Shown: piece after piece, positions 22,003-62,897 of the stretch
How positions within the stretch are numbered: the first letter of the stretch is position 1
Layout: each line of letters starts with the position of its first letter
NCBI GenBank assembly: GCA_036496425.1
Contig: DASXLG010000070.1
Location: 6,087-70,086, forward strand
DNA: 64,000 bases
DNA from: Terriglobia bacterium
GTDB lineage: Bacteria; Acidobacteriota; Terriglobia; 20CM-2-55-15
Direction of reading: 5' to 3'
The notes under the pieces: generated by a model
Databases searched by the model: none
Seen by the model: only the letters and a program-made list of their open reading frames with translations
Told to the model about the DNA's origin: nothing
Made by a program: the position numbers and the translations under genes

Positions 22003-22086
22003 TTTATAAACATTGCGAAACGATTGCACGCAGAAAGCCAGTGTGCCAGCGCGGCCGGGCGGTCCGCTGATCAAGCCGCAGCTGCG

Positions 22087-26095: not shown

Positions 26096-27675
26096 TGTTT
26101 CGCCGCGGCCTGGCCGTTACCGGTGAGTTTTTGAATGAGAGCCATCGTGCCCGGCTTCGGCACCGCCGCATGCGTCGCCAGGAAAATTCCTTCGGCCCAG
26201 TTGAAAGCGGTTCTGCCGGTTTTGTCCTTCACATCCAGACGCGCACCCTTCGAGACGAGAAACTCGATGATCGCGTCCGACCCGCGATTTGCGGCGCCCA
26301 TTGCGGCAGTCAAACCCATCGAATTTGCCGCATTCACATCCAGGCCGAGCTCCGAACACAACTTGACGGCCTCGAGCAGCGCCGGTTCGCCCTCGGTGTA
26401 TGTCTGATTCACGACCCAGTTCACGCCGGCCGCGGCCATCAGCGCATTCGTGCCGCTATAGGTCGTTATTTTCGGATCCGCGTCGTGTTTCAGGAGAAGG
26501 CGCATCGTTGAAAGGTCTCCCGACAGGGATGCAAGGATAAATGGCGTCTGGCCTGTAAAATCGACCCAGGCCAGTGAGCCTCCGAGCAGGTACATCCAGC
26601 GGCGGAGCGGCGCAACTTCTTTGACGCGGATGTTGGGATCCACGCCGCGATCGAGAAGATACCCGATGAAATCCAGGATCACTTTCCGGTCATCCTCATT
26701 GACCATGTGCTGAAACGTGACGTAATGCAGGTCCACGTTCCGCATTTCGATGGCCGCGAACAGCGGAGTCCGTCCGTACCAGTCGACCGCATTGATGTTC
26801 GCCCCGCGATCGATCAGCATCCGTGCCATCTCGATGCGGTTATTGCTGATGGCCATGAAGAGGGGCGTGATCGCGTTCTTGTCGACGGCGTTTACATCCG
26901 CGCCGGCTTCGATCAATGCCTTTGCGGCATCGAGATGTCCTTCACGCGCCGCGTACATCAAAGGCGTCATATCGCCTGGAATGGGCGCGCGATATCCCTG
27001 GTCCGGAAGACCGCCGCGAATGATCCCGACGCCATGCGACCCGCAGCCGGCCTTGTCGATGCAGGGCAGTTTCGGCTCCGGTGTGGCGCCCGTTCTGGTG
27101 CGGGCATGAACGTCTGCGCCACGGGCCAGAAGAGCCCGGACGATTTCGGCATTCCCGGTATCGGCGGCGAGCATCAGGGGAGTAAGCCGGAGTTGGGGTT
27201 CTGCAGCGTTGGGGTTGGCGCTTGAGGAAAGAAGCGCCTGAACAGATCCGGCCGCTCCTGCGCGGATGGCAACCATCAAAATCGATTCGCCGGTTGCGCG
27301 GTCGATCTGGTTGGCATTGGCTCCCGCAGAAAGGAGTGCGCGGACCATTTCGGGATCGCCATTCTGCGCCGCCAGATAAAGCGGCGTGACGCCAAGCCGG
27401 GTCTCCGCATTCGGATCCGCACCGGCCCGGAGCAACAATGTCGCGACTTCGAGTTCGTCGGCGCGCACAGCCCAGTGCAATGGCCGTGTGCCGTCGGTGT
27501 CGGCGGAATTGACGGCCTCCTTTGTCGATCCTTTCGAGACCAGCGAACGGACGCCGCTCCAGTTCGCCGATCGCGCTGCATCCAACAGTGCGATATCACC
27601 TGCGCCCGCCGCCAGGCATGCGCCGGCTGCAACGATCAGAACGAGAAATGCGTTTCTCACCAACCGAATAGACAT
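26092..27675 (-). CDS. Secreted ankyrin-repeat protein, module 2
   Basis: MSIRLVRNAFLVLIVAAGACLAAGA, followed by more than 10 ankyrin repeats (DGTRPLHWAVRADELEVATLLLRAGADPNAETRLGVTPLYLAAQNGDPEMVRALLSAGANAN...). A 4-nt overlap with the PSCyt start is present. Confidence 0.85.
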   Translation of the reverse strand: MSIRLVRNAFLVLIVAAGACLAAGAGDIALLDAARSANWSGVRSLVSKGSTKEAVNSADTDGTRPLHWAVRADELEVATLLLRAGADPNAETRLGVTPLYLAAQNGDPEMVRALLSAGANANQIDRATGESILMVAIRAGAAGSVQALLSSSANPNAAEPQLRLTPLMLAADTGNAEIVRALLARGADVHARTRTGATPEPKLPCIDKAGCGSHGVGIIRGGLPDQGYRAPIPGDMTPLMYAAREGHLDAAKALIEAGADVNAVDKNAITPLFMAISNNRIEMARMLIDRGANINAVDWYGRTPLFAAIEMRNVDLHYVTFQHMVNEDDRKVILDFIGYLLDRGVDPNIRVKEVAPLRRWMYLLGGSLAWVDFTGQTPFILASLSGDLSTMRLLLKHDADPKITTYSGTNALMAAAGVNWVVNQTYTEGEPALLEAVKLCSELGLDVNAANSMGLTAAMGAANRGSDAIIEFLVSKGARLDVKDKTGRTAFNWAEGIFLATHAAVPKPGTMALIQKLTGNGQAAAKQ

Positions 27676-27807
27676 ACCGCCTCCAGCTCGCTGTCGTTTG
27701 CGACACATTTCCAAATGGATATACCACCTGCACCATAGTCCCGATCGTCCCTTGAATCCAATATTTTCGTTCTGTTCTCCGTCCATGCGCCGATTATGGC
27801 CGGAGGT

Positions 27808-30334: not shown

Positions 30335-30490
30335 AAAAAGGAGCGAGTATACACGCTGCCGCGCGCCATCCGCGTCATCTGCGGCTATAAATACTCCCTC
30401 TTTTCCGAATTTACGTTGACAACAACTCTGTAAGTGAATTTAATGGGCGCAAATTTCCGGTTAAGAGAATTTCAGGTGGAGGACTCTACG

Positions 30491-33400
30491 ATGAAACGGT
30501 TCGCTCTCGCGGTGGCTCTGTTTTTGATAATTCTTCCGCTTCCAGCATTCGCGCAATCGAGCAATGCGAATCTCAGCGGAACGGTAACGGACGCTGGAAA
30601 AGCCTTCATCCCCGGAGTAAGCGTGTCGGCGGCGAACACGGAAACGGGGGTTGTCTCAACTGCAGTAAGCAACGAGACCGGAACGTACTCGATTCCCAGC
30701 CTGCTGCCGGGAACCTACAAAGTCAGCGCGGAGTTGCCTGGCTTTCAGACCCAGACCTATACCAATGTGCAGCTCGGAAATGCCGGACAGCTTCGATTGA
30801 ACTTCACGCTGCAGGTGGCTTCGTTGAGTACCGCCGTCGAAGTGACCGTTGAAGCCGATCGGCTGCTGCTGGAATCGACATCGTCTGTCGGCGCCGTGCT
30901 TCCGCAAAGGACGGTGGTTGACCTTCCGATCACCGGAGTCATGGGCAACGATGCGGTCAGTGGCCTGATTGGAACCCTGCCGGGCATCAACCTGTCCAGC
31001 GATCTGGTCCTCGCAGCCAACAGCACCATGGCGGCCGGCGTCAGCGCCGCCTATGTCAATGTCACGCGGGACGGGGTTGACGCCAGCGCTGCGGGACGAA
31101 ACGCCGCCGGTTTCCAACCGGCCACGATCATGAACCCGGATATGGTCGGCGAGGTCCGCATGGTCACCTCACCGGTGGATGCCGAACTCGGCCGCGGCAA
31201 TTCGCAGGTTCAGGTTCAGACGCGGTCCGGAACGAACCAGTACCGCGGGGCGTTGGTCTATAACATCCGGAACAGCGCCATCGAACCCAATTCCTGGGCC
31301 AACAACCGCGTACAGCCGACCCCCATCATTCCAAACTGGACAAACCTCAATGAATACACCGGAAGCGTCGGCGGGCCGATCATTAAAAATAAAACATTTT
31401 TCTTCTTTTTATGGGACGGCCTGCTCCCGTCGACACGAGCCAACGTCAATGCCACCGTACTATCGCCATGCGCACGAAATGGCATCTTCCGGTACTTCGA
31501 CGGCTGGCAAAGCGGCAATTCGCAGGCGGTCACCACGACAGGCGGCGCGACACCCGTGACCGCCACCGTCGATCAGGCCGGCAATATCCTGACTCCGGCG
31601 ACCAATGCGACCGGCACCGGGCCTTTCACCGGATCTCTCCATTATGTGAGCGTGTTCGGTAAACTGCCGGCCACCCTCCCCGCAGCAAATGCGGACTGCT
31701 CCAACATCTCCGCGCTCCTGCAGCCGGGAACCAGCTGGGATCCCAACCGGACACAGATCGATCCGACCGGATATGTCCAGAAAATATTTGGCGTGATGCC
31801 GGCGGTGAACAATTATCGAGTCGGGGACGGCTTGAACACTGAGGGATTTCAGTGGACGCAGAGCGCACACGGCGCCAACAATCGTTTTGCTTTCGGCTCT
31901 GCAGAGGTCCGGAAACAGCTCAACATCCGGATCGATCACAATTTCAACTCCAAAAACAAAATCAACGGCGGATGGAGCTTCGAACGCGACCACGCGGACT
32001 ACGCCCAGCCCCAGTGGCCAACCCAATTCACGGGCGTCGCGCACCACCAGCCGCAAGTCCTGACGGTGAGTTTCACGTCCACGCTATCGGCGACGTTGCT
32101 CAATGAAGCCCGATTCGGAATGCGCCGGATTGGGACCAATACCGCACACGCGTTGGCAAACCCGGCAACCATGAAGGCAGCGCTTGCTTTTATCCCCAAC
32201 GTGCAGGGGACACCCGTGCTTCCACAGTTGGGCATGAACGCCGTTGGAGCCGTGCAGGACATCTGCATCTGTGGCGGGCAGCCCCTGTTCCAGGGGGAAA
32301 CGGGGGGTACTCTTTTCAATGGCAATATCTCCGAAAAGACCCCGCTGTTCACTTATGGCGACTCGATAACCTGGACGAAAGGCAAACACACGTTCAAAGG
32401 CGGCGGCGAATTGCGCTTCGGGAGTTCACTGTTTGGCGACGACATTGAAGGCGGAAACTTCAGCTCCTTCGCGCGTGCCTTCGGCGGGGACTCGCCGCTG
32501 GCGCCGACCCAAAACATCGACAGCACGCATCAGCCGGGACTCCAGGGCACATCCACCACTGGAGCTCAACTGTATATGCGAAGCCTGTTGTCGCTGCTCT
32601 CCGGCTCGCTCGCCCAGGTGACCCAGCTGGATTGGCTGGCTAACGCCACAGACACGAAGTTTTCCGGTTACCAGACGGCCGCTCAGAGGTTTCGTCAGGT
32701 CAACCAGAACGAGGCTTCCCTTTTCTTCAAAGACGATTGGAAGTTCCGCCAGTCCCTGACGCTCAACCTCGGCCTGCGCTGGGATTATTATGGCCCGGCA
32801 TGGGTTTCCAATGGTTTGACGGCCGTTCCCGTCGGAGGCGGTAACGCGCTGTTCGGATATTCCGGCCGGGGTTTCCAGAACTGGATGCAGCCCGGACAAC
32901 GCGGTGCCAACACTCAGATCCAATTGGTTGGACCGGGCTCGCCGAATCCCGGGATCAGCGCCTGGTCCAAGGACTACCACAACTTCGGTCCGGCAGTGGG
33001 ATTTGCCTGGCAGATCCCTTACTTTGGAGCCGGGCAGACCACTCTTCGCGGCGGCTATCAGGTCAGCTTTCTGCCGGGAGGGGGCGGGCGGGTTTCGACT
33101 CTGAATGGCATTCTCGCAAATCCGCCGGGAAGCTCCTATGACGCCAGTATCAATCAGGCTCCAGGGCTGGAATACCTCGATATGACCAAACTGGCCAGCC
33201 TCGTTCCGGTAAACGTTCCGATCAAGCCGCTGCAGCCGGTTGATGTCACGAACCGGAGCGTGGGTCTGTCGGCGCTGGACCCCAACTTGACGAACCCTTA
33301 CGTTCAGAACCTGACGCTGAATCTGACGCGGCAGGTTGGACGAAACCTGACACTGGACGCCCGCTACATCGGAACGCTGAGCCGGAAGCTATACGGAAGT

Positions 33401-34615
33401 ATCAATCTCAACTCGCCCGATTTCCTGTACAACGGATTGAAGGAAGCCTTCGATGCCGCGCGCAGCGGGGGAGAATCGCCGTTGCTGGACCAGATGTTCA
33501 AAGGAATCAACCTTGTCGGCGGCGCAGGGACTGGACCGGTGGGAACTGTTGTCGGCGGCGTTCTGCAGACCGGAGCTGGTCAGCTTCGGGCTGACACGGC
33601 CAGTTTAATCCGCAACAACCTGGCCAATGGAAACTATTCCGCACTCGCCAGCACGCTCAATACATTAAATTATGCTGGGAGTAATAATCCCACTCTGCCG
33701 GTGATTCCGACCAACGTCTTGGGTGCTGTGCTGCGTAATAGCGGATTATTCCCGGAGAACTTCATCGCGACCAATCCGCAGTTCACCAGCGCAACCTGGC
33801 AAACAAATCTCGGCAACACCAACTACAACTCACTTCAATTCCAGTCGACGCTACGGCCGACCGCCGGCGTCAATCTTCAGGCAACCTACACCTGGAGCAA
33901 GCTTCTTGGACGCAGCGGCACCTTTACGAATCCCGTGGATCGGGGCCCGGATTACACGCTGCAAACGGGCGACATCCGGCATGACTTCCGCACCAACGGC
34001 ATTTTCAACGTGCCGATCGGACCGGGCCAACTGCTGCTCGGAAAGAGCTCGGGTGTTCTCGCCCGGTCGGTCGCGGGTTGGCAGATGGGCTGGATCGTTG
34101 ATCTGTCGAGCGGGGTTCCGACGAGCATTAGCGCGCAGAGCATGCTTTATGCGAACGGCGTTCCCGATAGGGTTGGGCCGTTTAACCCGCATGCCGGAAA
34201 AGTCCAGTGGCAAAATGGCGCCCTCGCCGGAAACTTCTTCGGCGGCGCTTACAAAACGGTTGCGGACCCGCAATGCTCCAGTATCGCGTCCAGTCTGCAA
34301 TCCCTCTGCACACTCACAGCCGTTGCGAATTCCTCAGGGACCGTCGTCCTGCAGAATCCGAAACCCGGAACCCGGGGCAATCTCGGCCAGAACGTCATCG
34401 AAAATCCCGGGATGTGGACTTTGAACACGTCCATGAGCAAGGCATTCAAGATCAGGGAAAGCAAAACCCTGAGATTCCGCATGGATGCCACAAACATCCT
34501 GAACCATCCGACTCCCTCCAACCCCACTCTGAGCATCAACAGCGCTCCGTTCGGTAACATTGCCTCGAAATCCGGCAACCGCCAGTTCCAGGCTGTAATG
34601 CGCTTGGAGTTTTAA
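30491..34615 (+). CDS. Very large TonB-dependent outer-membrane receptor with an N-terminal carboxypeptidase-regulatory-like domain
   Basis: Signal peptide MKRFALAVALFLIILPLPAFAQ. The N-terminal domain is GTVTDAGKAFIPGVSVSAANTETGVVSTAVSNETGTYSIPSLLPGTYKVSAELPGFQTQ. The protein is 1375 aa and ends ...NRQFQAVMRLEF, with a terminal Phe. Confidence 0.8.
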   Translation: MKRFALAVALFLIILPLPAFAQSSNANLSGTVTDAGKAFIPGVSVSAANTETGVVSTAVSNETGTYSIPSLLPGTYKVSAELPGFQTQTYTNVQLGNAGQLRLNFTLQVASLSTAVEVTVEADRLLLESTSSVGAVLPQRTVVDLPITGVMGNDAVSGLIGTLPGINLSSDLVLAANSTMAAGVSAAYVNVTRDGVDASAAGRNAAGFQPATIMNPDMVGEVRMVTSPVDAELGRGNSQVQVQTRSGTNQYRGALVYNIRNSAIEPNSWANNRVQPTPIIPNWTNLNEYTGSVGGPIIKNKTFFFFLWDGLLPSTRANVNATVLSPCARNGIFRYFDGWQSGNSQAVTTTGGATPVTATVDQAGNILTPATNATGTGPFTGSLHYVSVFGKLPATLPAANADCSNISALLQPGTSWDPNRTQIDPTGYVQKIFGVMPAVNNYRVGDGLNTEGFQWTQSAHGANNRFAFGSAEVRKQLNIRIDHNFNSKNKINGGWSFERDHADYAQPQWPTQFTGVAHHQPQVLTVSFTSTLSATLLNEARFGMRRIGTNTAHALANPATMKAALAFIPNVQGTPVLPQLGMNAVGAVQDICICGGQPLFQGETGGTLFNGNISEKTPLFTYGDSITWTKGKHTFKGGGELRFGSSLFGDDIEGGNFSSFARAFGGDSPLAPTQNIDSTHQPGLQGTSTTGAQLYMRSLLSLLSGSLAQVTQLDWLANATDTKFSGYQTAAQRFRQVNQNEASLFFKDDWKFRQSLTLNLGLRWDYYGPAWVSNGLTAVPVGGGNALFGYSGRGFQNWMQPGQRGANTQIQLVGPGSPNPGISAWSKDYHNFGPAVGFAWQIPYFGAGQTTLRGGYQVSFLPGGGGRVSTLNGILANPPGSSYDASINQAPGLEYLDMTKLASLVPVNVPIKPLQPVDVTNRSVGLSALDPNLTNPYVQNLTLNLTRQVGRNLTLDARYIGTLSRKLYGSINLNSPDFLYNGLKEAFDAARSGGESPLLDQMFKGINLVGGAGTGPVGTVVGGVLQTGAGQLRADTASLIRNNLANGNYSALASTLNTLNYAGSNNPTLPVIPTNVLGAVLRNSGLFPENFIATNPQFTSATWQTNLGNTNYNSLQFQSTLRPTAGVNLQATYTWSKLLGRSGTFTNPVDRGPDYTLQTGDIRHDFRTNGIFNVPIGPGQLLLGKSSGVLARSVAGWQMGWIVDLSSGVPTSISAQSMLYANGVPDRVGPFNPHAGKVQWQNGALAGNFFGGAYKTVADPQCSSIASSLQSLCTLTAVANSSGTVVLQNPKPGTRGNLGQNVIENPGMWTLNTSMSKAFKIRESKTLRFRMDATNILNHPTPSNPTLSINSAPFGNIASKSGNRQFQAVMRLEF

Positions 34616-34680: not shown

Positions 34681-34741
34681 GTTGTGGCTAATGTCCCCAA
34701 ATTCATGGCTTTTTTTGATATTTCAGACTAAACTTCCGCCA

Positions 34742-35656
34742 ATGATCCCGGTACAGACTAGAAGAGGGTTTCTTTCAACTCTCGCGCTCGTGTTTGCGGC
34801 ACGGAAAGCCTTCGCTTTCCCCTCGCAAATTGCGTCGGCGAAGCTGACGGAAAACCTCACATTCATCACCGGCGCCGGGGGCAACATCGTTGTCCTGAGT
34901 CAGCCCGAAGGCCTGCTTCTGGTGAACGGCAGTTCCCCCGAAATGGCGGCCGAACTCATGAAGTACCTGGCGGATCAGTTCAAGGGGCAGCCGGTGAAAG
35001 CCGTCTTCAACACCGACTGGCACCTCGATCACACGGGCTCGAACGAGCTGTTCAAAAAGGCCGGCGCGAAAATCTACGCGCACGAAAACACGAAGCTCTG
35101 GATCGGCGCCGATTTCTACTCCGACTGGGACAAGCACACGTACAAACCGCGCTCTGCGGCGGCGCTGCCGACGGACACGTTTTATACCTCGGGGAAAATG
35201 ACCTTCGGCAAGGAACCAATCGAGTACGGCTACATGGCGCAGGCTCATACGGACGGCGACATCTATGTTTTCTTCCCCGGCCAGAATGTGCTCGCGGCGG
35301 GCGATATCCTGAGTGTCGGAAAATATCCGCTCCTGGATTACGTGACCGGCGGATGGCTGGGCGGCCTTCAGAACGCCAACACCGCGCTCTTGAAAGTCGC
35401 CAATGCGGAGACGCGCATCATCCCGGGCAGCGGGCCCGTGCAGACGCGCGCCGACCTTCAGGCTCAGGCCGACATGTGCACAATGATGAGGGACCGCCTT
35501 GTCAAGCTGATGCGGCAGGGCATGGGGCCGGCCGACATGATCGCCTCAAAGCCGACCGAAGATTTCGATGCGAAGTGGGGTAATCCGGAACTCTTCATCC
35601 GAATGGCCTATCGCGGCATGTGGGGACACGTGCGCGAACTGGGCGGCATCATATAG
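34742..35656 (+). CDS. Tat-exported metallo-beta-lactamase-fold protein, module 3
   Basis: MIPVQTRRGFLSTLALVFAARKAFA is a Tat signal. The zinc-binding motif is NTDWHLDHTGSN, with downstream HTDGD. It is a paralog of 53700..54632 (the shared blocks HENT.LW, YGY...AHTDGD.YV.FP.QNVLA.GD and TGGW.GG are present). Confidence 0.75.
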   Translation: MIPVQTRRGFLSTLALVFAARKAFAFPSQIASAKLTENLTFITGAGGNIVVLSQPEGLLLVNGSSPEMAAELMKYLADQFKGQPVKAVFNTDWHLDHTGSNELFKKAGAKIYAHENTKLWIGADFYSDWDKHTYKPRSAAALPTDTFYTSGKMTFGKEPIEYGYMAQAHTDGDIYVFFPGQNVLAAGDILSVGKYPLLDYVTGGWLGGLQNANTALLKVANAETRIIPGSGPVQTRADLQAQADMCTMMRDRLVKLMRQGMGPADMIASKPTEDFDAKWGNPELFIRMAYRGMWGHVRELGGII

Positions 35657-35666
35657 GAGATAATTC

Positions 35667-38099
35667 ATGCGCTATGTGTGCGCGGTTTTGGCTTTCGCGG
35701 TCGCCATCCTGGCCTCGGGGTCGGCGGGCTCCGGTGGTTCCGGTAGTCTTCGAGCCGCGGCGCTGCAGGAAAAGACAGCGGTGACGCCATCTCCTCAGCA
35801 GGCACTCATCAATCAGTATTGCGTGACCTGTCACAACCAGCGCGCCAAGACCGCCAACGTCATGTTCGACACGATGGATGTGAACGACGTGTCGAAAAAT
35901 CCCCAGATCTGGGAACGCGCCGTCCGCAAGCTGCGCGGCGGGATGATGCCGCCACCGGGAGCGCGGCGTCCGGATCCGGGCGCCGCGCAGGGATTCGCAA
36001 CCTATCTCGAAAATGAACTCGATAAGGCGGCAGCTGCTCATCCGAATCCGGGACGCGTCGGCGTACACCGGATGAACCGCGATGAGTACGCGAATGCCGT
36101 CGAAGATCTGCTCGGCGTGCGGGTCGATGCCAGCGCCTTGCTCCCGAAGGATGACATCGCGGACGGCTTTGACAACATCGCCGACGTTCTCAAAGTTTCG
36201 CCGTCATTTCTCGATCAATACATTTCGGCCGCCCGCTTCGTGACCAATGAAGCCATCGGCAATCCCGCACCGAAGACGACCAGCGCCGTGTTTCGCGCTT
36301 CCCGCAGCACGGACCAGAGCGCTCATATCGACGGACTGCCGCTCGGCACCCGCGGCGGAATGCTGATCGACTATCTCTTCCCTGCCGACGGCGAATACAA
36401 GTTCAACATCAACGGCCTTGCCAGTGCCGGGTATGTCCGCGGCCTGGAGTGGGAACACACCGTCGTCATCACCATCGACGGCCACCGCGTCTGGGAAAAG
36501 AACGTCGGCGGCGAGGCCGACATCAAAGAGATCGATCAAAAACAGGCCGCCGCCGTGGCGGCGATTAACGGCCGGTTTCAGAACATTCTGATTCCCGTGA
36601 AGTCCGGACCACACAAGGTCGGGATAACCTTCATCGAACGTTCCTACGCCGAGCCGGACGAAACGCTCCGCTCATTTATCCCGGGAAAACTCGAAGATCG
36701 CATCGCGCGGATCTCGAATGTGGAAGTCCTTGGTCCGTACAACTCCGACGGAGTCACGGAGACGCCGAGCCACAAGCACGTTTTCATTTGCCATCCGGCC
36801 GGCGCCGCTTCCGAATCCGAGCAGACGGCCTGCGCAAAACAGATCCTCTCGGCGCTGGCGAAGCGCGCCTACCGCCGTCCCGTCACGGAGCGGGATCTGG
36901 TCGCGCCGATGGCATTCTACAAAACCGGTAAAGACGAAGGCGGCAGCTTCGACTCCGGCGTCAAGAGCGCCTTGACCGCGGTTCTGTCCAGCCCGAAGTT
37001 CCTGTACCGCGCCGAGACTTTCCCGGGAAACGTCGCAGCCGGATCGAACTATCGCATCAGTGATCTGGATCTGGCGGCGCGGATGTCGTTCTTCATCTGG
37101 AGCCGGTTGCCCGACGACGAACTGATCAATGCCGCGGCCAAGGGACAGCTGACCGATCCGAAAAATCCGCAGGCTCTGAATCAGGAAGTGCGGCGAATGC
37201 TGGCCGACCCGAAGTCGAAATCGCTGGTCACGAACTTTGCTTTCGAATGGCTGAAAGTCCGCAGCATCGACGATATCGATCCGGATGCCATCCAGTTTCC
37301 CAACTGGGACGACAGTCTGCGCGAAGCCTTCAAGCGCGAAATGGAACTGTTCGTCGGCAGCATCATTCAGGAAGACCGCAGCGTGGTGGATCTCCTCACG
37401 GCGAATTACACCTACCTTAATGAACGGCTGGCCCTGCACTACGGAATTCCGAACGTCCGTGGCGACCGCTTCCGCAGAGTCACGCTCGACGATCCGAACC
37501 GCTTCGGACTGTTCGGCAAAGGCAGCATTCTGATGGCGACGTCTTATCCGAACCGGACGGCTCCGGTTCTGCGCGGCGCTTTCGTTCTGGAAAACATCAT
37601 GGGAACGCCGCCCTCGCCGCCACCGCCGGACGTCGAAGGCTTCAAGGAAAACAAGGAAGGCGAAAAGGCGAAAACCGTGCGCGAGATCATGGAGAAGCAT
37701 CGCGCGAACCCGGTGTGCAATAACTGCCACGGCGTCATGGATCCGCTCGGCTTCTCGCTCGAGAATTTCGATGCGATCGGAGCCTGGCGATCGAAAGACG
37801 TTTTCGCGGACACGACTATCGACGCTTCCGGCAAACTGGTCGACGGAACGCCGGTCAATGGACCGGTGGATCTCCGCAATGCATTGCTGAAACATCCCGA
37901 ACAGTTCGTTCAGACACTCACCGAGAAGATGATGACGTTTGCCCTGGGACGCAGCGTGGAGTACTACGACATGCCGACCATACGCAAAATCGTCCGGGAC
38001 TCGGCGAAAGATAATTACAGGTTTTCTTCGATCGTGCTGGGCATCGTCAACAGCCCGGCGTTCCAGATGAGACGAGCGGAAAAGGTTACGAGTAATTAG
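35667..38099 (+). CDS. PSCyt/PSD multidomain di-heme family protein, module 3
   Basis: MRYVCAVLAFAVAILASGSAGS..., then YCVTCHNQRAKTANV. Family blocks include HPNPGRVGVHRMNRDEYANAVEDLL, LTANYTYLNERLALHYGIPN and FRRVTLDDPNRFGLFGKGSILMATSYPNRTAPVLRG. A C-terminal CNNCHGVMDPLGFSLENFD is present. A GGAG Shine-Dalgarno precedes it 11 nt after the MBL stop. Confidence 0.85.
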   Translation: MRYVCAVLAFAVAILASGSAGSGGSGSLRAAALQEKTAVTPSPQQALINQYCVTCHNQRAKTANVMFDTMDVNDVSKNPQIWERAVRKLRGGMMPPPGARRPDPGAAQGFATYLENELDKAAAAHPNPGRVGVHRMNRDEYANAVEDLLGVRVDASALLPKDDIADGFDNIADVLKVSPSFLDQYISAARFVTNEAIGNPAPKTTSAVFRASRSTDQSAHIDGLPLGTRGGMLIDYLFPADGEYKFNINGLASAGYVRGLEWEHTVVITIDGHRVWEKNVGGEADIKEIDQKQAAAVAAINGRFQNILIPVKSGPHKVGITFIERSYAEPDETLRSFIPGKLEDRIARISNVEVLGPYNSDGVTETPSHKHVFICHPAGAASESEQTACAKQILSALAKRAYRRPVTERDLVAPMAFYKTGKDEGGSFDSGVKSALTAVLSSPKFLYRAETFPGNVAAGSNYRISDLDLAARMSFFIWSRLPDDELINAAAKGQLTDPKNPQALNQEVRRMLADPKSKSLVTNFAFEWLKVRSIDDIDPDAIQFPNWDDSLREAFKREMELFVGSIIQEDRSVVDLLTANYTYLNERLALHYGIPNVRGDRFRRVTLDDPNRFGLFGKGSILMATSYPNRTAPVLRGAFVLENIMGTPPSPPPPDVEGFKENKEGEKAKTVREIMEKHRANPVCNNCHGVMDPLGFSLENFDAIGAWRSKDVFADTTIDASGKLVDGTPVNGPVDLRNALLKHPEQFVQTLTEKMMTFALGRSVEYYDMPTIRKIVRDSAKDNYRFSSIVLGIVNSPAFQMRRAEKVTSN

Positions 38100-38112: not shown

Positions 38113-39423
38113 ATGTTCATCACTAAGAAACATTTGTCACGCCGCACGTTCCTTCGCGGCGCAGGCGTCGCTGTTGGATTGCCGTTACTGGACGCAATGA
38201 TCCCGGCGGGCACAATGCTCGCTCAGACCGCGGCCAAAGCAACGCCGCACATGGGATTCATCTATTTCCCTCACGGCGCGATCATGGATAACTGGATGCC
38301 GGCGAAGGAGGGCGCCGACTTCGACCTGAAGCCCATCCTGAAACCGCTCGAACCTTTCAAGAAGCAATTGACCGTCATCAGCGGCCTGGCCAACAAGCAG
38401 GCGTACGGTCCCGTTCACGCTCTGTCGCCGGGAACATGGTTGAGTTGCGTCCGGCCGCGTGAAAGCCAGGATCCGTACGGCGGCGTGACCGTCGATCAGA
38501 TTGCGGCAAAACACATCGGCCAGGACACGCCAATGCCGTCGATCGAACTTGCCGTGGAAGGCGGCGGACTGGCCGGCGCGTGCGACCGGAACTTCGGCTG
38601 CAGTTATGCGGGAACGATCTCATTCCGCACGCCATCGACGCCGATGCCGATGGAATACAACCCGAGAAAGACATTCGAACGCCTGTTCGGGCAGGGCGAC
38701 ACCCCGCAGGAGCGCAAAGCTCTGGGCAAGCAATATGCCAGCATCCTCGACCTCATCAGCGAGGAAGCCGCCGATCTTCAATCGCACCTGGATCCCCAGG
38801 ACCGCGTGGCGGTCAGCGACTATCTGGAAAGCGTGCGCGAAGTGGAGCGGCGCGTCCAGAAAATGGACGAGCACGATCTGACCAGGCTCGACCTGCCGAA
38901 CGTTCCTCCCGGAACGCCCCCGCTCGACGACCGGCTCAACCTCATGTTCGACATGGTGGCTTTGGCCTATCAGGCGAACCTGACGCGCATCTTCTCGTTC
39001 ATGATGGCCGCCGAGGGCAGCAACATGACGTACAACCACATCGGCGTGCCCGATGCGTTCCATCCCGTATCGCATCACCAGAACAATCCGAAACGCATGG
39101 AAAGCTGTACGAAGATCCAGACCTATAACGCCGGGGTCGTTGCAAAATTCCTGGGGAAACTTCAAAAGATGCAGGACGGCGACGGCACCATGCTCGACCA
39201 TTCGATCATCCTGTTCGGCAGCAACATGAGCAACAGCAACGCTCACAATCACGATCCGTTACCGACAGCGCTCGTCAGCGGATGGAAGACGATCAAGGGT
39301 GGGCAGCATCTGAAATATCCGGAACACACGACGCTTGCGAACCTGCACCTGACGTTGCTCGAACGCGCCGGAATTGTGGAAAACGCTTTCGGAGACAGCA
39401 CCGGAAAGTTATCGGAGGTCTAA
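38113..39423 (+). CDS. DUF1501 family protein (Tat-exported), module 3
   Basis: MFITKKHLSRRTFLRGAGVAVGLPLLDAM, with an AAGGAG Shine-Dalgarno. Length is 436 aa. Confidence 0.85.
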   Translation: MFITKKHLSRRTFLRGAGVAVGLPLLDAMIPAGTMLAQTAAKATPHMGFIYFPHGAIMDNWMPAKEGADFDLKPILKPLEPFKKQLTVISGLANKQAYGPVHALSPGTWLSCVRPRESQDPYGGVTVDQIAAKHIGQDTPMPSIELAVEGGGLAGACDRNFGCSYAGTISFRTPSTPMPMEYNPRKTFERLFGQGDTPQERKALGKQYASILDLISEEAADLQSHLDPQDRVAVSDYLESVREVERRVQKMDEHDLTRLDLPNVPPGTPPLDDRLNLMFDMVALAYQANLTRIFSFMMAAEGSNMTYNHIGVPDAFHPVSHHQNNPKRMESCTKIQTYNAGVVAKFLGKLQKMQDGDGTMLDHSIILFGSNMSNSNAHNHDPLPTALVSGWKTIKGGQHLKYPEHTTLANLHLTLLERAGIVENAFGDSTGKLSEV

Positions 39424-40887
39424 ATGCCCACGATCATTCTTGCCATGCTGCTTGCAGCCGCCGGGCTGGTCGATGCCGTGAAATCCGGCGACCGGACGAC
39501 CGCCCTTTCACTGCTCCAGCAGAAAGTGAATGTCAACGCGCCCGAGGCGGACGGAACCACGGCCCTGCACTGGGCCGTTCAGAAAGACGACGCGGACCTC
39601 GTGGACCGGCTGATCAAAGCCGGCGCCAACGTCAACGCGAAAAACGACTACGGCTCGACGCCGATGTCGGAAGCCGCCATCAATGGCGACGTCGCGATCA
39701 TGGACAAACTGCTGAAGGCCGGCGCCAGCGCCGAATCGTCAAATGCCGACGGCCAGACAGCGTTGATGATCGTCGCGCGCACGAATAACGTCGAAGCAGC
39801 GCGGCTTCTGTTGAATCACGGCGCGAATGTCAACGCGGCAGAAAAGTTCCATGAACAAACGCCTCTGATGTGGGCGGCCGCCGAAGGCCAGGCCTCGATG
39901 ACCAAAGAACTCATCGCGCACGGCGCCGATGTCAATGCGCGCTCTCACGTCAATGACTGGGATCGCCAGGTCACTGCAGAAGCCCGCGCAATCGCTCGGC
40001 CGGCCGGCGGATTGACGGCGCTCCTGTACGCCGCGCGCCAGGGATGCACCGGATGCGCCAAAGCGCTGGCGGAAGGCGGCGCGGATTTGAATCTTGCCGA
40101 TCCGGAAGGCGTGTCTCCCCTGCTCCTCTCCATCCTTAACATGAACTTCGATGTCGCGGCCTATCTGATCCAGAAAGGCGCCAACGTCGACAAATGGGAT
40201 TGGTGGGGACAAAGTCCGGTCTACGCGGCTGTCGACGTGAATACGATTCCTCACGGCGGACGCCCGGACCGTCCTTCAGCCGACGAGACCACCAGCCTCC
40301 AGGTTCTGCAGATGCTGCTCGATAAAGGCGCGAACGCGAACCTTCAACTCAAGCTCTTGCCGCCTTATCGCAACCTTGGCGCCGATCGCGGAGTCGATGG
40401 AATGCTCACCATCGGCACAACGCCTCTGCTGCGGGCCGCCAAAGGCCTGGATGCGCCCGCGATCAAATTGTTGCTCGAACACGGCGCCAATCCGAACCTG
40501 CCCAATACGCGGAATTTCATTCCGATCGTGGCCGCTGCCGGAATCGGATCGAGCGATGCCGATACGCGCGGCTGGTTCAAAACCGACGACGTTCAGCAGC
40601 GGGCCATCGCTTCTCTGGACCTTCTGCTGAAAGCCGGAGGCGACATCAACGCCAAGGATACACAGGGCAAAACCCTGCTGCTGGGCGCCGCATTCTGGGG
40701 TTGGAGTGACGTCGTGAAATATCTCGCCGCTCATGGCGCCGACTTGAGTGCGAAAGATAATCGCGGGCACGATGCCGTCGACACAGCGCTCGGCAAAGCC
40801 GGCGGCAACAGCCGCGGCGGCCAACGCGTCGATGTGCATCAGGACACCGCGGACCTGCTCAAACAACTGATCGCGGCCAAACAATGA
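39424..40887 (+). CDS. Secreted ankyrin-repeat protein, module 3
   Basis: MPTIILAMLLAAAGLVDA. Ankyrin repeats include DGTTALHWAVQKDDADLVDRLIKAGANVNAKNDYGSTPMSEAAINGDVAIMDKLLKAGA.... The ATG immediately follows the DUF1501 TAA. Confidence 0.85.
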   Translation: MPTIILAMLLAAAGLVDAVKSGDRTTALSLLQQKVNVNAPEADGTTALHWAVQKDDADLVDRLIKAGANVNAKNDYGSTPMSEAAINGDVAIMDKLLKAGASAESSNADGQTALMIVARTNNVEAARLLLNHGANVNAAEKFHEQTPLMWAAAEGQASMTKELIAHGADVNARSHVNDWDRQVTAEARAIARPAGGLTALLYAARQGCTGCAKALAEGGADLNLADPEGVSPLLLSILNMNFDVAAYLIQKGANVDKWDWWGQSPVYAAVDVNTIPHGGRPDRPSADETTSLQVLQMLLDKGANANLQLKLLPPYRNLGADRGVDGMLTIGTTPLLRAAKGLDAPAIKLLLEHGANPNLPNTRNFIPIVAAAGIGSSDADTRGWFKTDDVQQRAIASLDLLLKAGGDINAKDTQGKTLLLGAAFWGWSDVVKYLAAHGADLSAKDNRGHDAVDTALGKAGGNSRGGQRVDVHQDTADLLKQLIAAKQ

Positions 40888-41831
40888 GAAAAAGAAAAGG
40901 AACACAAAAAGCACAAGAGACACAAGCAAGACGCATTATTCCTCTCTTGTGTTGCTTTTTGTGCTTCTTGTGTTCCTTTCCCGTCTTCGCCGCCAACGAC
41001 TGCGATCGGCCCTGCCTCAAGACCACCCTCGACCAGTATCTCAACGCCGCCATCAAGCATGACCCGGCGGGCGCTCCTCTTTTCGCCGGCTTCCGCCAGA
41101 CCGAAAACGCCATCGTGGTGCGCACCGGTACCGGCATCTGGAAATCGCTGACCGGCCTCGGCAAGGTTCAGCGCCGTTACTTCGATCCGGTGTCCGGACA
41201 GGCCGCCTATTACGGAATCATCGAAGAAGGTTCAACTGCCGATATCGCGACAGTCCGCCTCAAGGTGGAAGACAAGAAGATCACGGAAGCCGAATGGATT
41301 ATCAGCCGCAAAACCGATATCGGCCTGAACGGCACCGGCCCGAATCTTCTCGATCCCGGGAATCTAGCCGCCAATGCCCCTCCCGATAAACCCATGCCGC
41401 GCGACGCGAAGCTCTCGCGCGCAGCGCTGATGGCCATCGTGAACAGTTATTTCGACGGCATCACGACACACGACGGCTCCATCATCAATGCGTATCAAGG
41501 ATGCACCCGAATCGAAAACGGCGTTACGATGACCGGCCGCGGAAGCCGCGGCGGAGCAACGAGCGATTGCACCTCCGGCCTGGAAACCATCAACATTCTG
41601 AATGTTGCGGCACGCCGCTTCCCTATCGTCGACGAGGATGCCGGCGTCGTCCTGGCGATGGCTGTCTTCATCCGGAAACCCGGCACCACGACACGCCGGA
41701 ACGTTTTCTCGGAATGGTTCTACATCGATAAAGGGAAGATCCGGACGATTTACACTGCGATGTTCTATCCGCCCGCGGAGCTTCCGGTTCCCAACTGGCC
41801 GCCATACGACGGCAACTGGCCGGTGAAATAA
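40884..41831 (+). CDS. Secreted hypothetical protein whose signal peptide is supplied by a palindromic repeat
   Basis: MRKRKGTQKAQETQARRIIPLLCCFLCFLCSFPVFAAND... The ATGA overlaps the ankyrin stop. The mature part (CDRPCLKTTLDQYLNAAIKHDPAG...) has no family I recognise. Length is 315 aa. Confidence 0.55.
   Translation: MRKRKGTQKAQETQARRIIPLLCCFLCFLCSFPVFAANDCDRPCLKTTLDQYLNAAIKHDPAGAPLFAGFRQTENAIVVRTGTGIWKSLTGLGKVQRRYFDPVSGQAAYYGIIEEGSTADIATVRLKVEDKKITEAEWIISRKTDIGLNGTGPNLLDPGNLAANAPPDKPMPRDAKLSRAALMAIVNSYFDGITTHDGSIINAYQGCTRIENGVTMTGRGSRGGATSDCTSGLETINILNVAARRFPIVDEDAGVVLAMAVFIRKPGTTTRRNVFSEWFYIDKGKIRTIYTAMFYPPAELPVPNWPPYDGNWPVK
40899..40976. repeat. Palindromic repeat family 1, copy C
   Basis: Arm 1 is ggaacacaaaaagcacaagagacacaag. 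Arm 2 is ctcttgtgttgctttttgtgcttcttgtgttcc, an imperfect reverse complement. It encodes GTQKAQETQ...LLCCFLCFLCS of the downstream protein. Confidence 0.8.
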
Positions 41832-46129: not shown

Positions 46130-47989
46130 CTAATTCTTCTGTTCCGGCGCGGGTTCCGCAGCAGGCGGCGCCTGTCCCCGGTTGGCTGGCGGCGGCGGAA
46201 CCGCGGCCGCGGGCATCACTGCGGTGCCGTCCAGCGCAAAGACGAACATGATCGGCGGACTATCCACTTTCGCATTGTTCGGTCCGATGGTGGTTGCCGG
46301 ACGTCCTAAACCGCCGCCGAAAGCGACGTACTGTTTGCCGTCGACTTCGTAGGTGATCGGCGGAGCCATGCCGGTGCGGCCCGTCTTCACCTCATAAAGC
46401 ACCTCGCCGTTATCGGCGCGAATGGCGCGGAAGCGCCCATCGTTGATGGTCTGGAACACCAGGTTGCCCGCGGTCGTCGTGGTTCCTCCGCCGATGCCGC
46501 CGCCCCCTTCGACATTCCACTTCAACTTCTGATTCGCCGGATCCCATGCTTGCAATCCGCCGCGCGCACCCTGAGGCGGCTCGGGACCGAAGGCCGGTCC
46601 AATCGTTTTTGTCGGACCCGAAGGACGTACATAACCGGTCGTGCCGGGCTTGTGCTCCACCTGCGCCTGATACGGGAAACTACTGTAGGAGGCGGGAATG
46701 TATACCAGTCCGGTATTCGGATTGAAGGACATCGGCGCCCAGTTGTGGGCGCCGCCGCCGGTCGGAAACACCGATACCGGATCCTGATCGTAATACGCTT
46801 CGGGATTCACGACGGGCCGCCCGCCTTCGCCCATGCGCAACGCCCAGCTCACTTTGACGAACGGCTCGGCCGAAATCAATTCGCCGGTCACGCGGTCCAG
46901 AACATAGAAGAACCCGTCCTTTGGCGCCTGCGTGATGACCTTGCGCATGCGGCCGTTGATATTGAGGTCGAGAAGCATCAATTGCGCCACGTTGTCGTAA
47001 TCCCAGTTGTCGTTCGGGACGGCCTGGTAATACCACTTGAGCTGGCCGGTCGTCAGGTCGACTGCCAGAATCGAGCATGTATAAAGGTTGTCCAGACCCT
47101 GCGCGCCGCGGAACTTCTGAACCCAGGGTTCCGCGTTGCCCGTACCGAGATAAACGAGATTCACTTCGGGATCGTAGGCAAAGCCGTCCCACACCGCGCC
47201 CCCGCCGCCATTCTTGTAGAAATCACCGCCCCAGGTCTTTGCCGCGGTGCGCAACACCGGGCTCTCATACGGCTTTGAAGGGTCGCCCGGCACCGTGTAG
47301 AAGCGCCACGCGATCTGGCCGCTCTGCGCATCCACGGCAACGAACTGGCCGCGCGTGGGTTTGTCGCCGCCGGAGGCGCCGATGATGACTTTGCCGCCTG
47401 CGATACGCGGCGCCATGGTCAATGTGTACTGGTCCTGCGGATAAACGATCCGCGTTTCCCAAACCGGCCTGCCGGTCGTGGCGTTCAATGCAAACAAACG
47501 GCCGTCGATCGCCGGCGCGATGACCATGCCGTTATACAGCGCGATCCCGCGATTCACGATGCCGCAGCAGATCGCCGGCCGTATCGTCTGGTTGACCTCT
47601 GGATCCCATCGCCAGAGTTCTTTGCCCGTCCGCGCATCGAGCGCGAAAACGACACTCCACGTCGTGATGCCGTAAAGTGTGTTGTTCCACATCAGCGGCG
47701 TACCTTCCTGATTGCCGCCGCCGGCTCCCATCTCGTAGTACCACGCCAGACCGAGACGCTTCGCGTTTGAAGCGTCGATCTGTTTCAGCGGGCTGTAACG
47801 CGTCTCGCTCTGCGTGCGGCCGTAACTCAACCACGCACCGGATTGCGAGTCATTCGCGCTGCCCGTGCGCCGAAGCACGTCGTTGGTGATGTTGGCAGGC
47901 GTGCCGACACGGGTCTGTTGTGCATACATCGCGGCGCTCACTGCAGCGATCAATAGAATAAGCACAGCGGATCGACGAAATCTGGCCAT
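46130..47989 (-). CDS. PQQ-dependent (quinoprotein) alcohol/sugar dehydrogenase, eight-bladed propeller
   Basis: Signal peptide MARFRRSAVLILLIAAVSAAMYAQQ. Family blocks include W.SYGRT..ETRYSPL.QI...N...L.LAW and the vicinal disulfide PAICCGIVNRG characteristic of PQQ-ADH-type enzymes. Repeated W-motif propeller blades and a Pro-rich C-terminal tail are present. Confidence 0.75.
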   Translation of the reverse strand: MARFRRSAVLILLIAAVSAAMYAQQTRVGTPANITNDVLRRTGSANDSQSGAWLSYGRTQSETRYSPLKQIDASNAKRLGLAWYYEMGAGGGNQEGTPLMWNNTLYGITTWSVVFALDARTGKELWRWDPEVNQTIRPAICCGIVNRGIALYNGMVIAPAIDGRLFALNATTGRPVWETRIVYPQDQYTLTMAPRIAGGKVIIGASGGDKPTRGQFVAVDAQSGQIAWRFYTVPGDPSKPYESPVLRTAAKTWGGDFYKNGGGGAVWDGFAYDPEVNLVYLGTGNAEPWVQKFRGAQGLDNLYTCSILAVDLTTGQLKWYYQAVPNDNWDYDNVAQLMLLDLNINGRMRKVITQAPKDGFFYVLDRVTGELISAEPFVKVSWALRMGEGGRPVVNPEAYYDQDPVSVFPTGGGAHNWAPMSFNPNTGLVYIPASYSSFPYQAQVEHKPGTTGYVRPSGPTKTIGPAFGPEPPQGARGGLQAWDPANQKLKWNVEGGGGIGGGTTTTAGNLVFQTINDGRFRAIRADNGEVLYEVKTGRTGMAPPITYEVDGKQYVAFGGGLGRPATTIGPNNAKVDSPPIMFVFALDGTAVMPAAAVPPPPANRGQAPPAAEPAPEQKN

Positions 47990-48078
47990 GAGATTCTCCC
48001 GGTTAAGTCCGATCAAAATATCATGAACGGCGCAAAAGGACGTAGCGGTATGAAGGCGGAGAATCGTTGTGAGAGCAG

Positions 48079-48270
48079 ACATTCCCCGCCTTTCCAAGGC
48101 GGGGAGGCTGCGCCATCAAGAGATAGTCCCGTTCCTTATCGGCGCAGACGGGGCGGTTTGTAACTTCCATCAACAAGTAAGGAGCGCTACGCGGTTCGTT
48201 GATAACCGCCCCGCCCGAGCGTTCTAACGTTTGATCTCTCGGGCACCCCGCCTTGAAAAGGCGGGGAATG
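48079..48270. repeat. R2 structured repeat, copy c, the most complete copy; it lies in the 5' leader of the PQQ-dehydrogenase gene
   Basis: acattccccgcctttccaaggcggggaggctgcgccatcaag...cggcgcagacggggcggtttgtaacttccatcaac...gttgataaccgccccgcc...caccccgccttgaaaaggcgggg. At least four hairpins are visible, and the core matches 12714-12810 and 62704-62800. Confidence 0.8.
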
Positions 48271-53692: not shown

Positions 53693-53699
53693 ATTAAGG

Positions 53700-55183: not shown

Positions 55184-55247
55184 ATCTATCCTCCCTAAAT
55201 GACTTAATGAATTTGCGCAAACATCATATGGTACAGTTTGCCGCGAA

Positions 55248-57162: not shown

Positions 57163-57177
57163 TTTGATTGGCGTGGT

Positions 57178-57249
57178 TGAACATGGTGTGTGAGCGACCC
57201 CCTGCCGCCGCTTCGCGGCGGCAGGGGGTCGCTCACACACCATGTTTAT
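57178..57249. terminator. Perfect 32-bp-stem palindrome between convergent genes, likely a bidirectional terminator
   Basis: aacatggtgtgtgagcgaccccctgccgccgc-ttcg-gcggcggcagggggtcgctcacacaccatgtt. It starts 16 nt after the stop of the plus-strand polyferredoxin and overlaps the stop of the minus-strand hypothetical. Confidence 0.6.
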
Positions 57250-57734: not shown

Positions 57735-57744
57735 GAATACTCCT

Positions 57745-62691: not shown

Positions 62692-62703
62692 TCGTCGTGA
62701 GCG

Positions 62704-62880: not shown

Positions 62881-62897
62881 ATGCTGCTCCCGCTTTC

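Follow-up and report, generated by a model that had tools for sequence, protein, structure and literature searches.

Five paralogous PSCyt3-family proteins of a Terriglobia bacterium carry two conserved CxxCH motifs and are probable di-haem cytochromes

The window analyzed here, a stretch of 64,000 nucleotides from an uncultured Terriglobia bacterium (Acidobacteriota), carries five modules of neighboring genes, each encoding a large PSCyt3-family protein (the cytochrome, below), a DUF1552 protein and an ankyrin-repeat protein. Residues of the cytochromes are numbered as in the module-3 copy. The features are as follows.

16861-18186, minus strand: module-1 DUF1552 partner, with a Tat signal
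18201-20486, minus strand: module-1 PSCyt3-family protein, with CVGCH at 20331-20345 and CASCH at 18549-18563
20491-22074, minus strand: module-1 ankyrin-repeat protein
22503-23816, minus strand: module-2 DUF1552 partner, with a Tat signal
23813-26095, minus strand: module-2 PSCyt3-family protein, with CFTCH at 25973-25987 and CNSCH at 24218-24232
26092-27786, minus strand: module-2 ankyrin-repeat protein
34682-35656, plus strand: protein with a metallo-beta-lactamase fold and a Tat-like signal, encoded directly before the module-3 cytochrome
35667-38099, plus strand: module-3 PSCyt3-family protein, 810 aa
35820-35834, plus strand: N-terminal CVTCH of the module-3 protein (C52, C55, H56)
37716-37730, plus strand: C-terminal CNNCH of the module-3 protein (C684, C687, H688), within PSCyt3
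38113-39423, plus strand: module-3 DUF1552 (HXXSHH) partner, with the twin-arginine signal SRRTFL
39424-40887, plus strand: module-3 ankyrin-repeat protein, with a signal-like N-terminus
48278-49933, minus strand: module-4 ankyrin-repeat protein
49935-51221, minus strand: module-4 DUF1552 partner, with a Tat signal
51248-53692, minus strand: module-4 PSCyt3-family protein, with CAGCH at 53528-53542 and CSSCH at 51638-51652
53700-54632, minus strand: protein with a metallo-beta-lactamase fold and a Tat-like signal, encoded directly before the module-4 cytochrome
58929-60257, minus strand: module-5 DUF1552 partner, with a Tat signal; start as in the JGI gene call, the open frame reaching 60311
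60295-62691, minus strand: module-5 PSCyt3-family protein, with CVTCH at 62569-62583 and CGACH at 60661-60675
62898-64000, minus strand: module-5 ankyrin-repeat protein, running off the window end (553 aa on the JGI contig)

The starts of two cytochromes were chosen within longer open frames. That of module 4 is open back to 53830, and its likely start at 53692 (MTKNR...) matches the gene call on the JGI contig (814 aa); that of module 5 is open back to 62901, and its likely start, a TTG at 62691, also matches the JGI call (798 aa).

Each of the five paralogs contains exactly two CxxCH motifs, and these ten make up all but one of the 11 CxxCH found in a six-frame scan of the window, the eleventh lying in a 44-codon non-coding frame. 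The ten motif strings quoted in the original prediction were all found exactly as written, and the span it gave for the module-3 copy (35819-37739) is correct within a few bases, the motif positions running from 35820 to the end of the proline at 37745. Its placing of the second motif about 120 residues from the C-terminus agrees with copy 3, in which 126 residues separate the C-terminal Cys from the end of the protein. As it also proposed, the first motif follows a signal peptide, insofar as the N-termini of all five cytochromes, judged by eye, are signal-like and hydrophobic ahead of the motif, and both motifs are kept across diverged copies, the other four paralogs being 47-50% identical to that of module 3. 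In the latter, CNNCH is preceded by a conserved H678-R679 and followed by MDPLGFSLENFD.

The domain content identifies the five paralogs as standard Group III PSCyt proteins (PSCyt3/DUF1592 family). In the module-3 protein, a signal-like N-terminus is followed by a cytochrome c domain, PSD3, a beta-sandwich, PSD5, PSD4, PSCyt3 and PSD2. PSCyt3 (PF07627) scores 108-116 bits in all five copies (cut-off 27), and PSD3, PSD5, PSD4 and PSD2 also exceed their cut-offs in every copy, always in the order PSD3, PSD5, PSD4, PSCyt3, PSD2. The combination of PSCyt3 with PSD4, in most cases joined by PSD2, PSD3 and PSD5, has been described (PMC5615132), and our proteins are members of this group, with an identical set and order of domains and a DUF1552 gene likewise adjacent. 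They differ in their host, an acidobacterium, whereas the family was named in PVC phyla, and in having an ankyrin-repeat partner and, for some copies, a metallo-beta-lactamase-fold partner, neither of which is mentioned in the Group III papers. The AlphaFold2 model of the module-3 protein (pLDDT 82, pTM 0.83) contains a central beta-sandwich resembling carbohydrate-binding modules of the CBM6/35/36/60 type. The central 169 residues of the protein matched no Pfam family.

The presence of two CxxCH motifs in such proteins is already known, contrary to the newness that the original prediction implied. The Pfam names PSCyt1 and PSCyt3 record the motifs. According to later papers, the name "planctomycete-specific cytochrome c" goes back to Studholme et al. 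2004; a survey of the family followed (He et al. 2017, PMC5615132), and the published surveys describe the same architecture and neighbor and suggest a redox function (PMC5615132, PMC3542564, PMC2754498). The literature search returned no functional or biochemical study under any DUF or PSCyt name.

A search for the family found 39,629 clusters at 50% identity (E up to 0.001), and the representatives of the best 150 of these, 35-66% identical to copy 3, were aligned with the five paralogs. At the N-terminal site, C52 was kept in 144 of 144 sequences, C55 in 145 of 145 and H56 in 144 of 145, and the Met-Pro-Pro downstream was nearly as constant (M94 145/151, P95 148/150, P96 146/150). The C-terminal site behaved similarly (C684 139/140, C687 143/144, H688 138/144), as did H678 (139/142). 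Every sequence that apparently lacked the C-terminal motif was a fragment or frameshifted, so both motifs are present in all the full-length sequences among the 150 representatives. An independent sample of 80 loci was drawn from GTDB genomes with the PSD4 peptide [SA][FY]FLW[SNG][ST]xPD, a seed that excludes the motif; 67 of its 69 complete genes, from Acidobacteriota, Verrucomicrobiota and Gammaproteobacteria, encoded exactly two CxxCH, and the two exceptions were one gene cut by a contig end and one with an extra N-terminal cytochrome module. The C-terminal CxxCH is therefore conserved well beyond this genome, whereas the original prediction would have fallen had it been confined there. These results refute the idea that the motifs are functionless products of chance or of a single lineage, to which we give practically no credence: it is at odds with the family alignment, with the independent sample, and with the six-frame scan, where nearly all CxxCH belong to the paralogs.

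Judged from profile scores, the domain that holds the N-terminal motif is probably an ordinary cytochrome c domain of class I (PSCyt1/Cytochrome_CBB3). The Pfam family PSCyt1 scores 24.8-25.3 bits in copies 1-3 (cut-off 22), and Cytochrome_CBB3 scores 28.8 and 33.0 bits in copies 2 and 4 (cut-off 27); the N-terminal domain of copy 5 stays under both cut-offs (19.0 and 23.5 bits). Four of the five copies thus score over a Pfam cut-off. Like class I c-type cytochromes (PF13442, PF07635), the domain has its CxxCH after a helix and a Met-Pro-Pro about 40 residues downstream. It differs from them in being fused to a body of about 700 residues of uncharacterized function, and in the low scores of copy 5. 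A first haem would accordingly be held at C52-x-x-C55-H56, and we infer that its sixth ligand is Met94, which lies within GMMPP, 38 residues downstream of His56. Small His/Met class I domains are typically points where electrons enter or leave a protein.

The C-terminal motif sits inside the Pfam domain PSCyt3 (DUF1588, PF07627). Charged residues that are nearly invariant (R672, D692, E699 and R708) lie around it, and the conserved His678 lies six residues upstream of its first Cys. Two methionines were considered as ligands and rejected: Met691, which is Met in only 106 of 143 sequences, and Met769, in the "DMP" of PSD2, a candidate for a distal ligand of the class I type that is conserved in no more than 39 of about 140 sequences. 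Since no Met is conserved downstream of this site, the sixth position of a haem bound at C684-x-x-C687-H688, within the helical PSCyt3 domain, would either be taken by His678, giving bis-His ligation, or be open. A residue so close before the first Cys is an unusual place for a distal ligand.

Comparisons of this region with known proteins gave few matches. At E values up to 10, the isolated C-terminal region matched PSCyt3 and PSD2 and no cytochrome family in Pfam; no sequence relative was found in the PDB with the whole protein, its profile or a profile of the C-terminal 147 residues as queries; and a Foldseek search with the helical core gave no significant match to a solved structure. The haem assignment at the C-terminal site consequently rests on the motif and its conservation. 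Of the two hemes proposed in the original prediction, the N-terminal one is supported by the cytochrome c domain and its Met-Pro-Pro, whereas the C-terminal one has the motif and its conservation in its favor, and the metal site offered there as an alternative may apply. The searched literature contained no experimental evidence of haem in any family member. When the N-terminal domain was aligned with the C-terminal region by hhalign, the probability was 80-87%, the alignment pairing the CxxCH motifs and a shared G-[LF]-x-L-[DE]-x-x-D. This internal match is driven largely by five motif columns.

A non-haem C-terminal site would mean that only the N-terminal motif binds haem and that H678-x5-C684-x2-C687-H688 forms either a metal centre of the Cys2His2 type or a redox-active disulfide at CxxC, stabilizing or regulating the PSCyt3 domain. 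This would be compatible with the near-invariance of all four potential ligands, with the lack of a conserved Met downstream, and with the absence of any match to a cytochrome family or known structure. A further pair of cysteines, C375/C389, is less conserved than the motif cysteines (about 100 of 155 sequences) and indicates that ordinary structural cysteines are also used in these proteins. However, His688 is as conserved as both cysteines in full-length sequences, while a disulfide needs no His, and the region resembles the N-terminal haem module of the same protein, weakly and at profile level, beyond the motif as well. Moreover, Cys-ligated zinc sites are uncommon in the oxidizing periplasm, the binding of one metal ion by an adjacent Cys and His is sterically awkward, and the Ccm system attaches haem by recognizing a CxxCH in polypeptides that are exported and unfolded. 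We therefore consider a non-haem site unlikely. Neither the window nor about 5 kb of the 157,651-bp metagenome contig past each of its ends contains cytochrome c maturation (ccm/ccs) genes, a result that counts against haem attachment but has little weight for the genome as a whole.

The genes around the cytochromes are also conserved. A DUF1552 gene (PF07586, 261-299 bits) lies directly downstream of the cytochrome in all five modules, and all five partners carry a twin-arginine motif (SRRTF or DRRTF). Among the 80 related loci, 75 contain a DUF1552 gene and 69 an ankyrin gene, which identifies the exported ankyrin-repeat protein, as far as gene linkage and N-terminal sequence tell, as a conserved third partner. 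The metallo-beta-lactamase-fold gene found before module 3 has the same arrangement with a cytochrome gene in a Vicinamibacterales MAG. Other redox genes lie beside the modules, namely a PQQ dehydrogenase, a NosR-like/FMN-binding/ApbE cluster and a redoxin.

A PDB search with the DUF1552 profile gave nothing usable. The fold of DUF1552 is predicted to be that of the alkaline-phosphatase/sulfatase superfamily, whose core alpha/beta fold is present in the model. Its invariant residues are H102, H317, S320, H321, H322, D357, D362 and H378. A partner of the alkaline-phosphatase superfamily has no obvious need for electrons, an observation that goes against a redox role of the module.

The hydrolase-type fold predicted for DUF1552 and the CBM-like beta-sandwich of the cytochrome would both suit a module whose reaction is purely hydrolytic, with DUF1552 as the enzyme and the CBM-like domain holding the substrate. 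Both haems would then be present but stand outside this chemistry, as a structural cofactor or to sense the redox state or a ligand such as O2 or NO; a C-terminal haem lacking a conserved Met could indeed be five-coordinate and bind ligands. On the other hand, an N-terminal His/Met class I domain is a typical electron-transfer module, the protein has no signaling output domain in Pfam, and the redox genes beside the modules provide circumstantial evidence in the same direction. This explanation therefore appears quite improbable to us.

A comparable system is that of the PSCyt1-PSCyt2-PSD1 (DUF1549/DUF1553) proteins, which pair with a Tat-exported DUF1501 protein (Kamneva et al. 2012, PMC3542564). 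It follows the same logic, in that an N-terminal PSCyt1 haem motif stands in a large exported protein adjoining a Tat-exported one of uncharacterized function, and both systems are heavily duplicated within genomes. PSCyt1-PSCyt2-PSD1 proteins often carry a carbohydrate-binding domain, matched here by the CBM-like domain of the paralogs. However, the core is PSCyt2/PSD1 in those proteins and PSD3-5/PSCyt3/PSD2 in ours, and the partner is DUF1501 in one case and DUF1552 in the other.

Bacterial di-haem cytochrome c peroxidases and MauG offer an analogy of possible working only. Membership in this group was rejected, as no CCP_MauG Pfam match was obtained, and the two motifs of the paralogs are about 630 residues apart instead of lying in two adjacent cytochrome domains, with a helical core that has no solved counterpart. 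The Sox system (SoxAX, SoxB, SoxH) is likewise an analogy, in that genes for a metallo-hydrolase and a c-type cytochrome of the periplasm occur together. In our modules a metallo-beta-lactamase-fold protein is also encoded, its best NCBIfam matches including two SoxH-related families, both below their cut-offs. However, no Sox family was matched, no carrier protein was seen, and the alkaline-phosphatase-superfamily fold predicted for DUF1552 differs from that of SoxB.

Taken together, each paralog is an exported PSCyt3/DUF1592 member that most likely binds two c-type haems covalently. Because the C-terminal CxxCH is conserved and the N-terminal cytochrome c domain has its Met-Pro-Pro, the redox role put forward in the original prediction is the most reasonable reading. 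In this di-haem protein, the two sites would be separated by PSD3, the CBM-like beta-sandwich (CBM6/35/36/60) and the helical PSD5 and PSD4 domains. Together with the Tat-exported DUF1552 protein and, usually, an adjacent exported ankyrin protein, the cytochrome would make up a conserved module in the periplasm and be its redox subunit. The N-terminal haem could exchange electrons with the respiratory or a periplasmic pool and relay them to the internal haem, which would carry out or assist a redox reaction of a bound substrate, probably anionic or polymeric, that is also processed by DUF1552.

A more speculative version, which we think has a small chance of being right, is that the cytochrome, DUF1552 and ankyrin proteins form a widespread and so far unrecognized periplasmic enzyme system. 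The di-haem, CBM-like subunit would bind an anionic polymer or ester, for example humic material or a glycan bearing sulfate or phosphate groups, and oxidize or reduce it; the partner would hydrolyze the product, and the ankyrin protein would hold the complex together. The PSCyt3 haem would then represent a catalytic haem-c site of a new kind, whose distal side carries His678 and Arg679.

The motif finding itself adds nothing beyond what the domain names say, and its value is as a prompt for a first biochemical test. New here are the Tat signal and predicted fold of DUF1552, the CBM-like domain, the conserved ankyrin partner and the residues listed around each site. Soil Acidobacteriota, Verrucomicrobiota and Planctomycetota carry the family in multiple copies per genome, and all of its members are functionally uncharacterized. 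If haem were shown on both motifs, along with its use for the sulfatase-like partner, thousands of genes that are abundant in the environment would gain a role, and these genes may matter in carbon, sulfur or phosphorus turnover.

Translation of the five cytochrome genes of the window, each belonging to a module with its partner genes, gave exactly two CxxCH motifs per paralog. The coordinates of the genes and of the two motifs of copy 3, whose residue numbering (810 aa) is used throughout, are as follows.

Cytochrome paralogs and the motifs of copy 3
18201-20486, minus strand, large-protein gene, cytochrome copy 1 (module 1)
23813-26095, minus strand, large-protein gene, cytochrome copy 2 (module 2)
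35667-38099, plus strand, large-protein gene, cytochrome copy 3 (module 3)
51248-53830, minus strand, open frame, cytochrome copy 4 (module 4)
60295-62901, minus strand, open frame, cytochrome copy 5 (module 5)
35820-35834, plus strand, CVTCH, N-terminal motif of copy 3
37716-37730, plus strand, CNNCH, C-terminal motif of copy 3

The last two open frames are over-long; copy 4 likely starts at 53692 and copy 5 at the TTG codon at 62691, positions that match gene calls on a JGI contig. Only 11 CxxCH motifs occur when the entire 64 kb is scanned in six frames, ten of them those of the paralogs and the eleventh lying within a 44-codon non-coding frame. As the other paralogs are only 47-50% identical to copy 3, the motifs have been retained through considerable divergence. 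The original prediction, which proposed two conserved CxxCH motifs per paralog and hence a redox role, agrees exactly with the translation in the motifs and the flanking residues it quoted, and its module-3 span falls within a few bases of the mapped motifs. The motif observation is confirmed, far beyond chance.

Three unrelated exported-protein genes carry a palindromic DNA repeat at the 5′ end, namely cytochrome copy 1 (20403-20484, minus strand), a DUF8021-like gene at 40884-41831 (40899-40976, plus strand) and ankyrin copy 4 (49859-49914, minus strand), with a possible half-site at 2109-2126. The arms of the repeat read GGAACACAAGA(A/G)GCACAAGA... and ...TTGTGCTTCTTGTGTTCC, and across the window the arm sequence is matched 10 times, where 0.02 matches are expected. 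If translated, one arm is rich in Lys, Arg and His and the other reads as a hydrophobic LCFLCFLCS, together resembling a signal peptide. One possible reading of the palindrome is a REP-like hairpin caught inside ORFs that were called too long, another a repeat that also encodes signal peptides.

Pfam assigns a single architecture to all five paralogs: a cytochrome c domain (PSCyt1 and/or Cytochrome_CBB3, with scores near or above the cut-offs), PSD3 (DUF1587), a stretch of ~190 residues without a Pfam domain, PSD5 (DUF1595), PSD4 (DUF1592), PSCyt3 (DUF1588) and PSD2 (DUF1585). PSCyt3, which contains the C-terminal CxxCH, scores 108-116 bits in the five copies, and a DUF1552 (HXXSHH) gene directly follows each cytochrome gene. 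This is the “Group III” PSCyt architecture of He et al.; PSCyt abbreviates “planctomycete-specific cytochrome c”, a name for which PMC2754498, PMC3542564 and PMC5615132 cite Studholme et al. 2004. Many homologs carry the JGI label “mono/diheme cytochrome c family protein”. Since the domain names already record the motifs, the observation restates what is known, and these are typical proteins of a named, uncharacterised family.

An exhaustive HMMER search returned 39,629 clusters (50% identity) at E up to 0.001 and 11,146 at E up to 1e-30. The best 150 cluster representatives (35-66% identical to copy 3) were aligned with the five paralogs, an alignment that covers only the closest part of this very large family. 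Both sites were nearly invariant: C52 (144/144), C55 (145/145) and H56 (144/145) at the N-terminal site, and C684 (139/140), C687 (143/144) and H688 (138/144) at the C-terminal one, where all apparent exceptions are short or frameshifted sequences. To avoid selection on CxxCH itself, GTDB species genomes were also scanned with the PSD4 peptide [SA][FY]FLW[SNG][ST]xPD. The genes recovered come mainly from Acidobacteriota, with some from Akkermansiaceae, Opitutaceae, Steroidobacteraceae and Pseudohongiellaceae; 67 of the 69 complete genes encode exactly two CxxCH motifs, the others being one gene truncated by a contig end and one with an extra N-terminal cytochrome module. Both samples thus place the C-terminal CxxCH well beyond this genome, the main point at stake in the original prediction.

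The N-terminal site has the appearance of a normal class I cytochrome c. Pfam cytochrome models exceed their cut-offs in four of the five copies, a helix precedes the CxxCH in the AlphaFold2 model of copy 3 (confident overall, pLDDT 82, pTM 0.83), and M94-P95-P96, 38 residues past His56, is conserved in 145/151, 148/150 and 146/150 sequences, respectively.

No conserved Met follows the C-terminal CxxCH in the aligned sequences (M691, 106/143; M769, 39 of about 140). The residues conserved around it are H678 (139/142), R679, R672, D692, G695, E699 and R708, and among them only His678 is a candidate sixth ligand; without such a ligand, the haem would be five-coordinate. The C-terminal region has no cytochrome family match in Pfam and no sequence match in the PDB, and a structure search with the helical core of the copy-3 model found no solved counterpart. 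A profile-profile comparison of this region with the protein's own N-terminal haem domain gave 80-87% probability, pairing the CxxCH and a shared G-[LF]-x-L-[DE]-x-x-D, with a score leaning heavily on the motif columns; this hints at a common origin of the two regions. As a general rule, the haem-attachment machinery has exported CxxCH motifs as its substrate, and this rule, the exported location and the invariant His and both Cys make the case for a C-terminal haem. It seems unlikely that the same residues instead form a redox disulfide or a metal site of the Cys2His2 type. No cytochrome c maturation genes were found within the window or ~5 kb past each end.

All five paralogs have a second Cys pair where PSD5 starts, at a spacing of 10-13 residues (C375/C389 in copy 3, window about 36789-36833). 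The pair is kept in only about 100-105 of the 155 aligned homologs, lies outside any haem motif and probably forms a structural disulfide.

Further genes of the modules and their surroundings
20491-22074, 26092-27786, 39424-40887, 48278-49933 and 62898-64000, ankyrin-repeat proteins (about 480-560 aa)
34682-35656 and 53700-54632, Tat-signal metallo-beta-lactamase-fold proteins preceding cytochrome copies 3 and 4
46130-48097, PQQ dehydrogenase, beside the modules just past module 4
54698-55267, redoxin, beside the modules
55715-56233, FMN-binding-domain protein, next to module 5
56230-57162, NosR-like polyferredoxin membrane protein, next to module 5
57820-58884, minus strand, flavin transferase ApbE, next to module 5
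6849-9320, minus strand, and 30434-34615, plus strand, large TonB-dependent-receptor-like outer-membrane beta-barrel proteins with a CarboxypepD_reg N-terminal domain

Each of the five DUF1552 copies opens with SRRTF or DRRTF, a twin-arginine motif. A metal site could be formed by their invariant His, Asp and Ser residues, among them D362, H378 and those of the HxxSHH motif. JGI metagenome contigs also encode the module-3 DUF1552 protein; Ga0376661_0000095 (157,651 bp, sample 3300036827) is the longest of them. An identical protein is present at NCBI from a Terriglobia (Acidobacteriota) MAG. The window is 99.98% identical to Ga0376661_0000095 over the compared stretch, barring one 36-base length difference at a short repeat (about 57746-57829) near the 3′ end of apbE.

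Each module also encodes an ankyrin-repeat protein with a signal-like N-terminus. The gene order is ankyrin, cytochrome, DUF1552 in modules 1, 2 and 5, and metallo-beta-lactamase-fold protein, cytochrome, DUF1552, ankyrin in modules 3 and 4; this four-gene form was seen again in a Vicinamibacterales MAG. Of 80 related loci from several phyla, 75 have DUF1552, 69 an ankyrin gene and 4 the beta-lactamase-fold gene. The published PSCyt surveys (PMC5615132, PMC3542564, PMC2754498) make no mention of the ankyrin partner. An ankyrin gene also lies 3′ of a homolog at only 37% identity, and the ankyrin protein is a conserved third partner. A precedent exists in Pseudomonas, where the exported ankyrin protein AnkB serves the haem enzyme KatB, a catalase; the analogy offers a lead for the partner seen here.

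Two c-type haems with a redox role are the most likely reading, one that fits all the evidence and that we hold to be fairly probable. The original prediction is partly supported: it is upheld for the class I-like N-terminal site and the conservation of both motifs, and the C-terminal haem is putative, with a metal site as the less probable alternative. In the two-haem reading, the N-terminal haem would relay electrons to the internal haem, which would act on a substrate shared with DUF1552. The FMN-binding, NosR-like and ApbE cluster (55715-58884) could be an electron route from the membrane to periplasmic proteins; like the PQQ dehydrogenase and the redoxin, it belongs to the periplasmic redox genes that neighbour the modules. 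For the module-3 metallo-beta-lactamase-fold protein, the sole copy scanned, NCBIfam places SoxH-related “quinoprotein relay system” families second and third, with scores well short of the cut-offs. One of the TonB-dependent-receptor-like beta-barrels (30434-34615) sits immediately 5′ of module 3, and the presence of the two suggests that the substrates of the modules may be imported ones.

To this known family, our analysis adds conservation counts for both sites and their surrounding residues, a second site without a Met ligand and with a conserved His-Arg pair, a predicted carbohydrate-binding-like domain within the cytochrome, and the predicted sulfatase/phosphatase-like fold of its Tat-exported partner together with a conserved ankyrin third partner.
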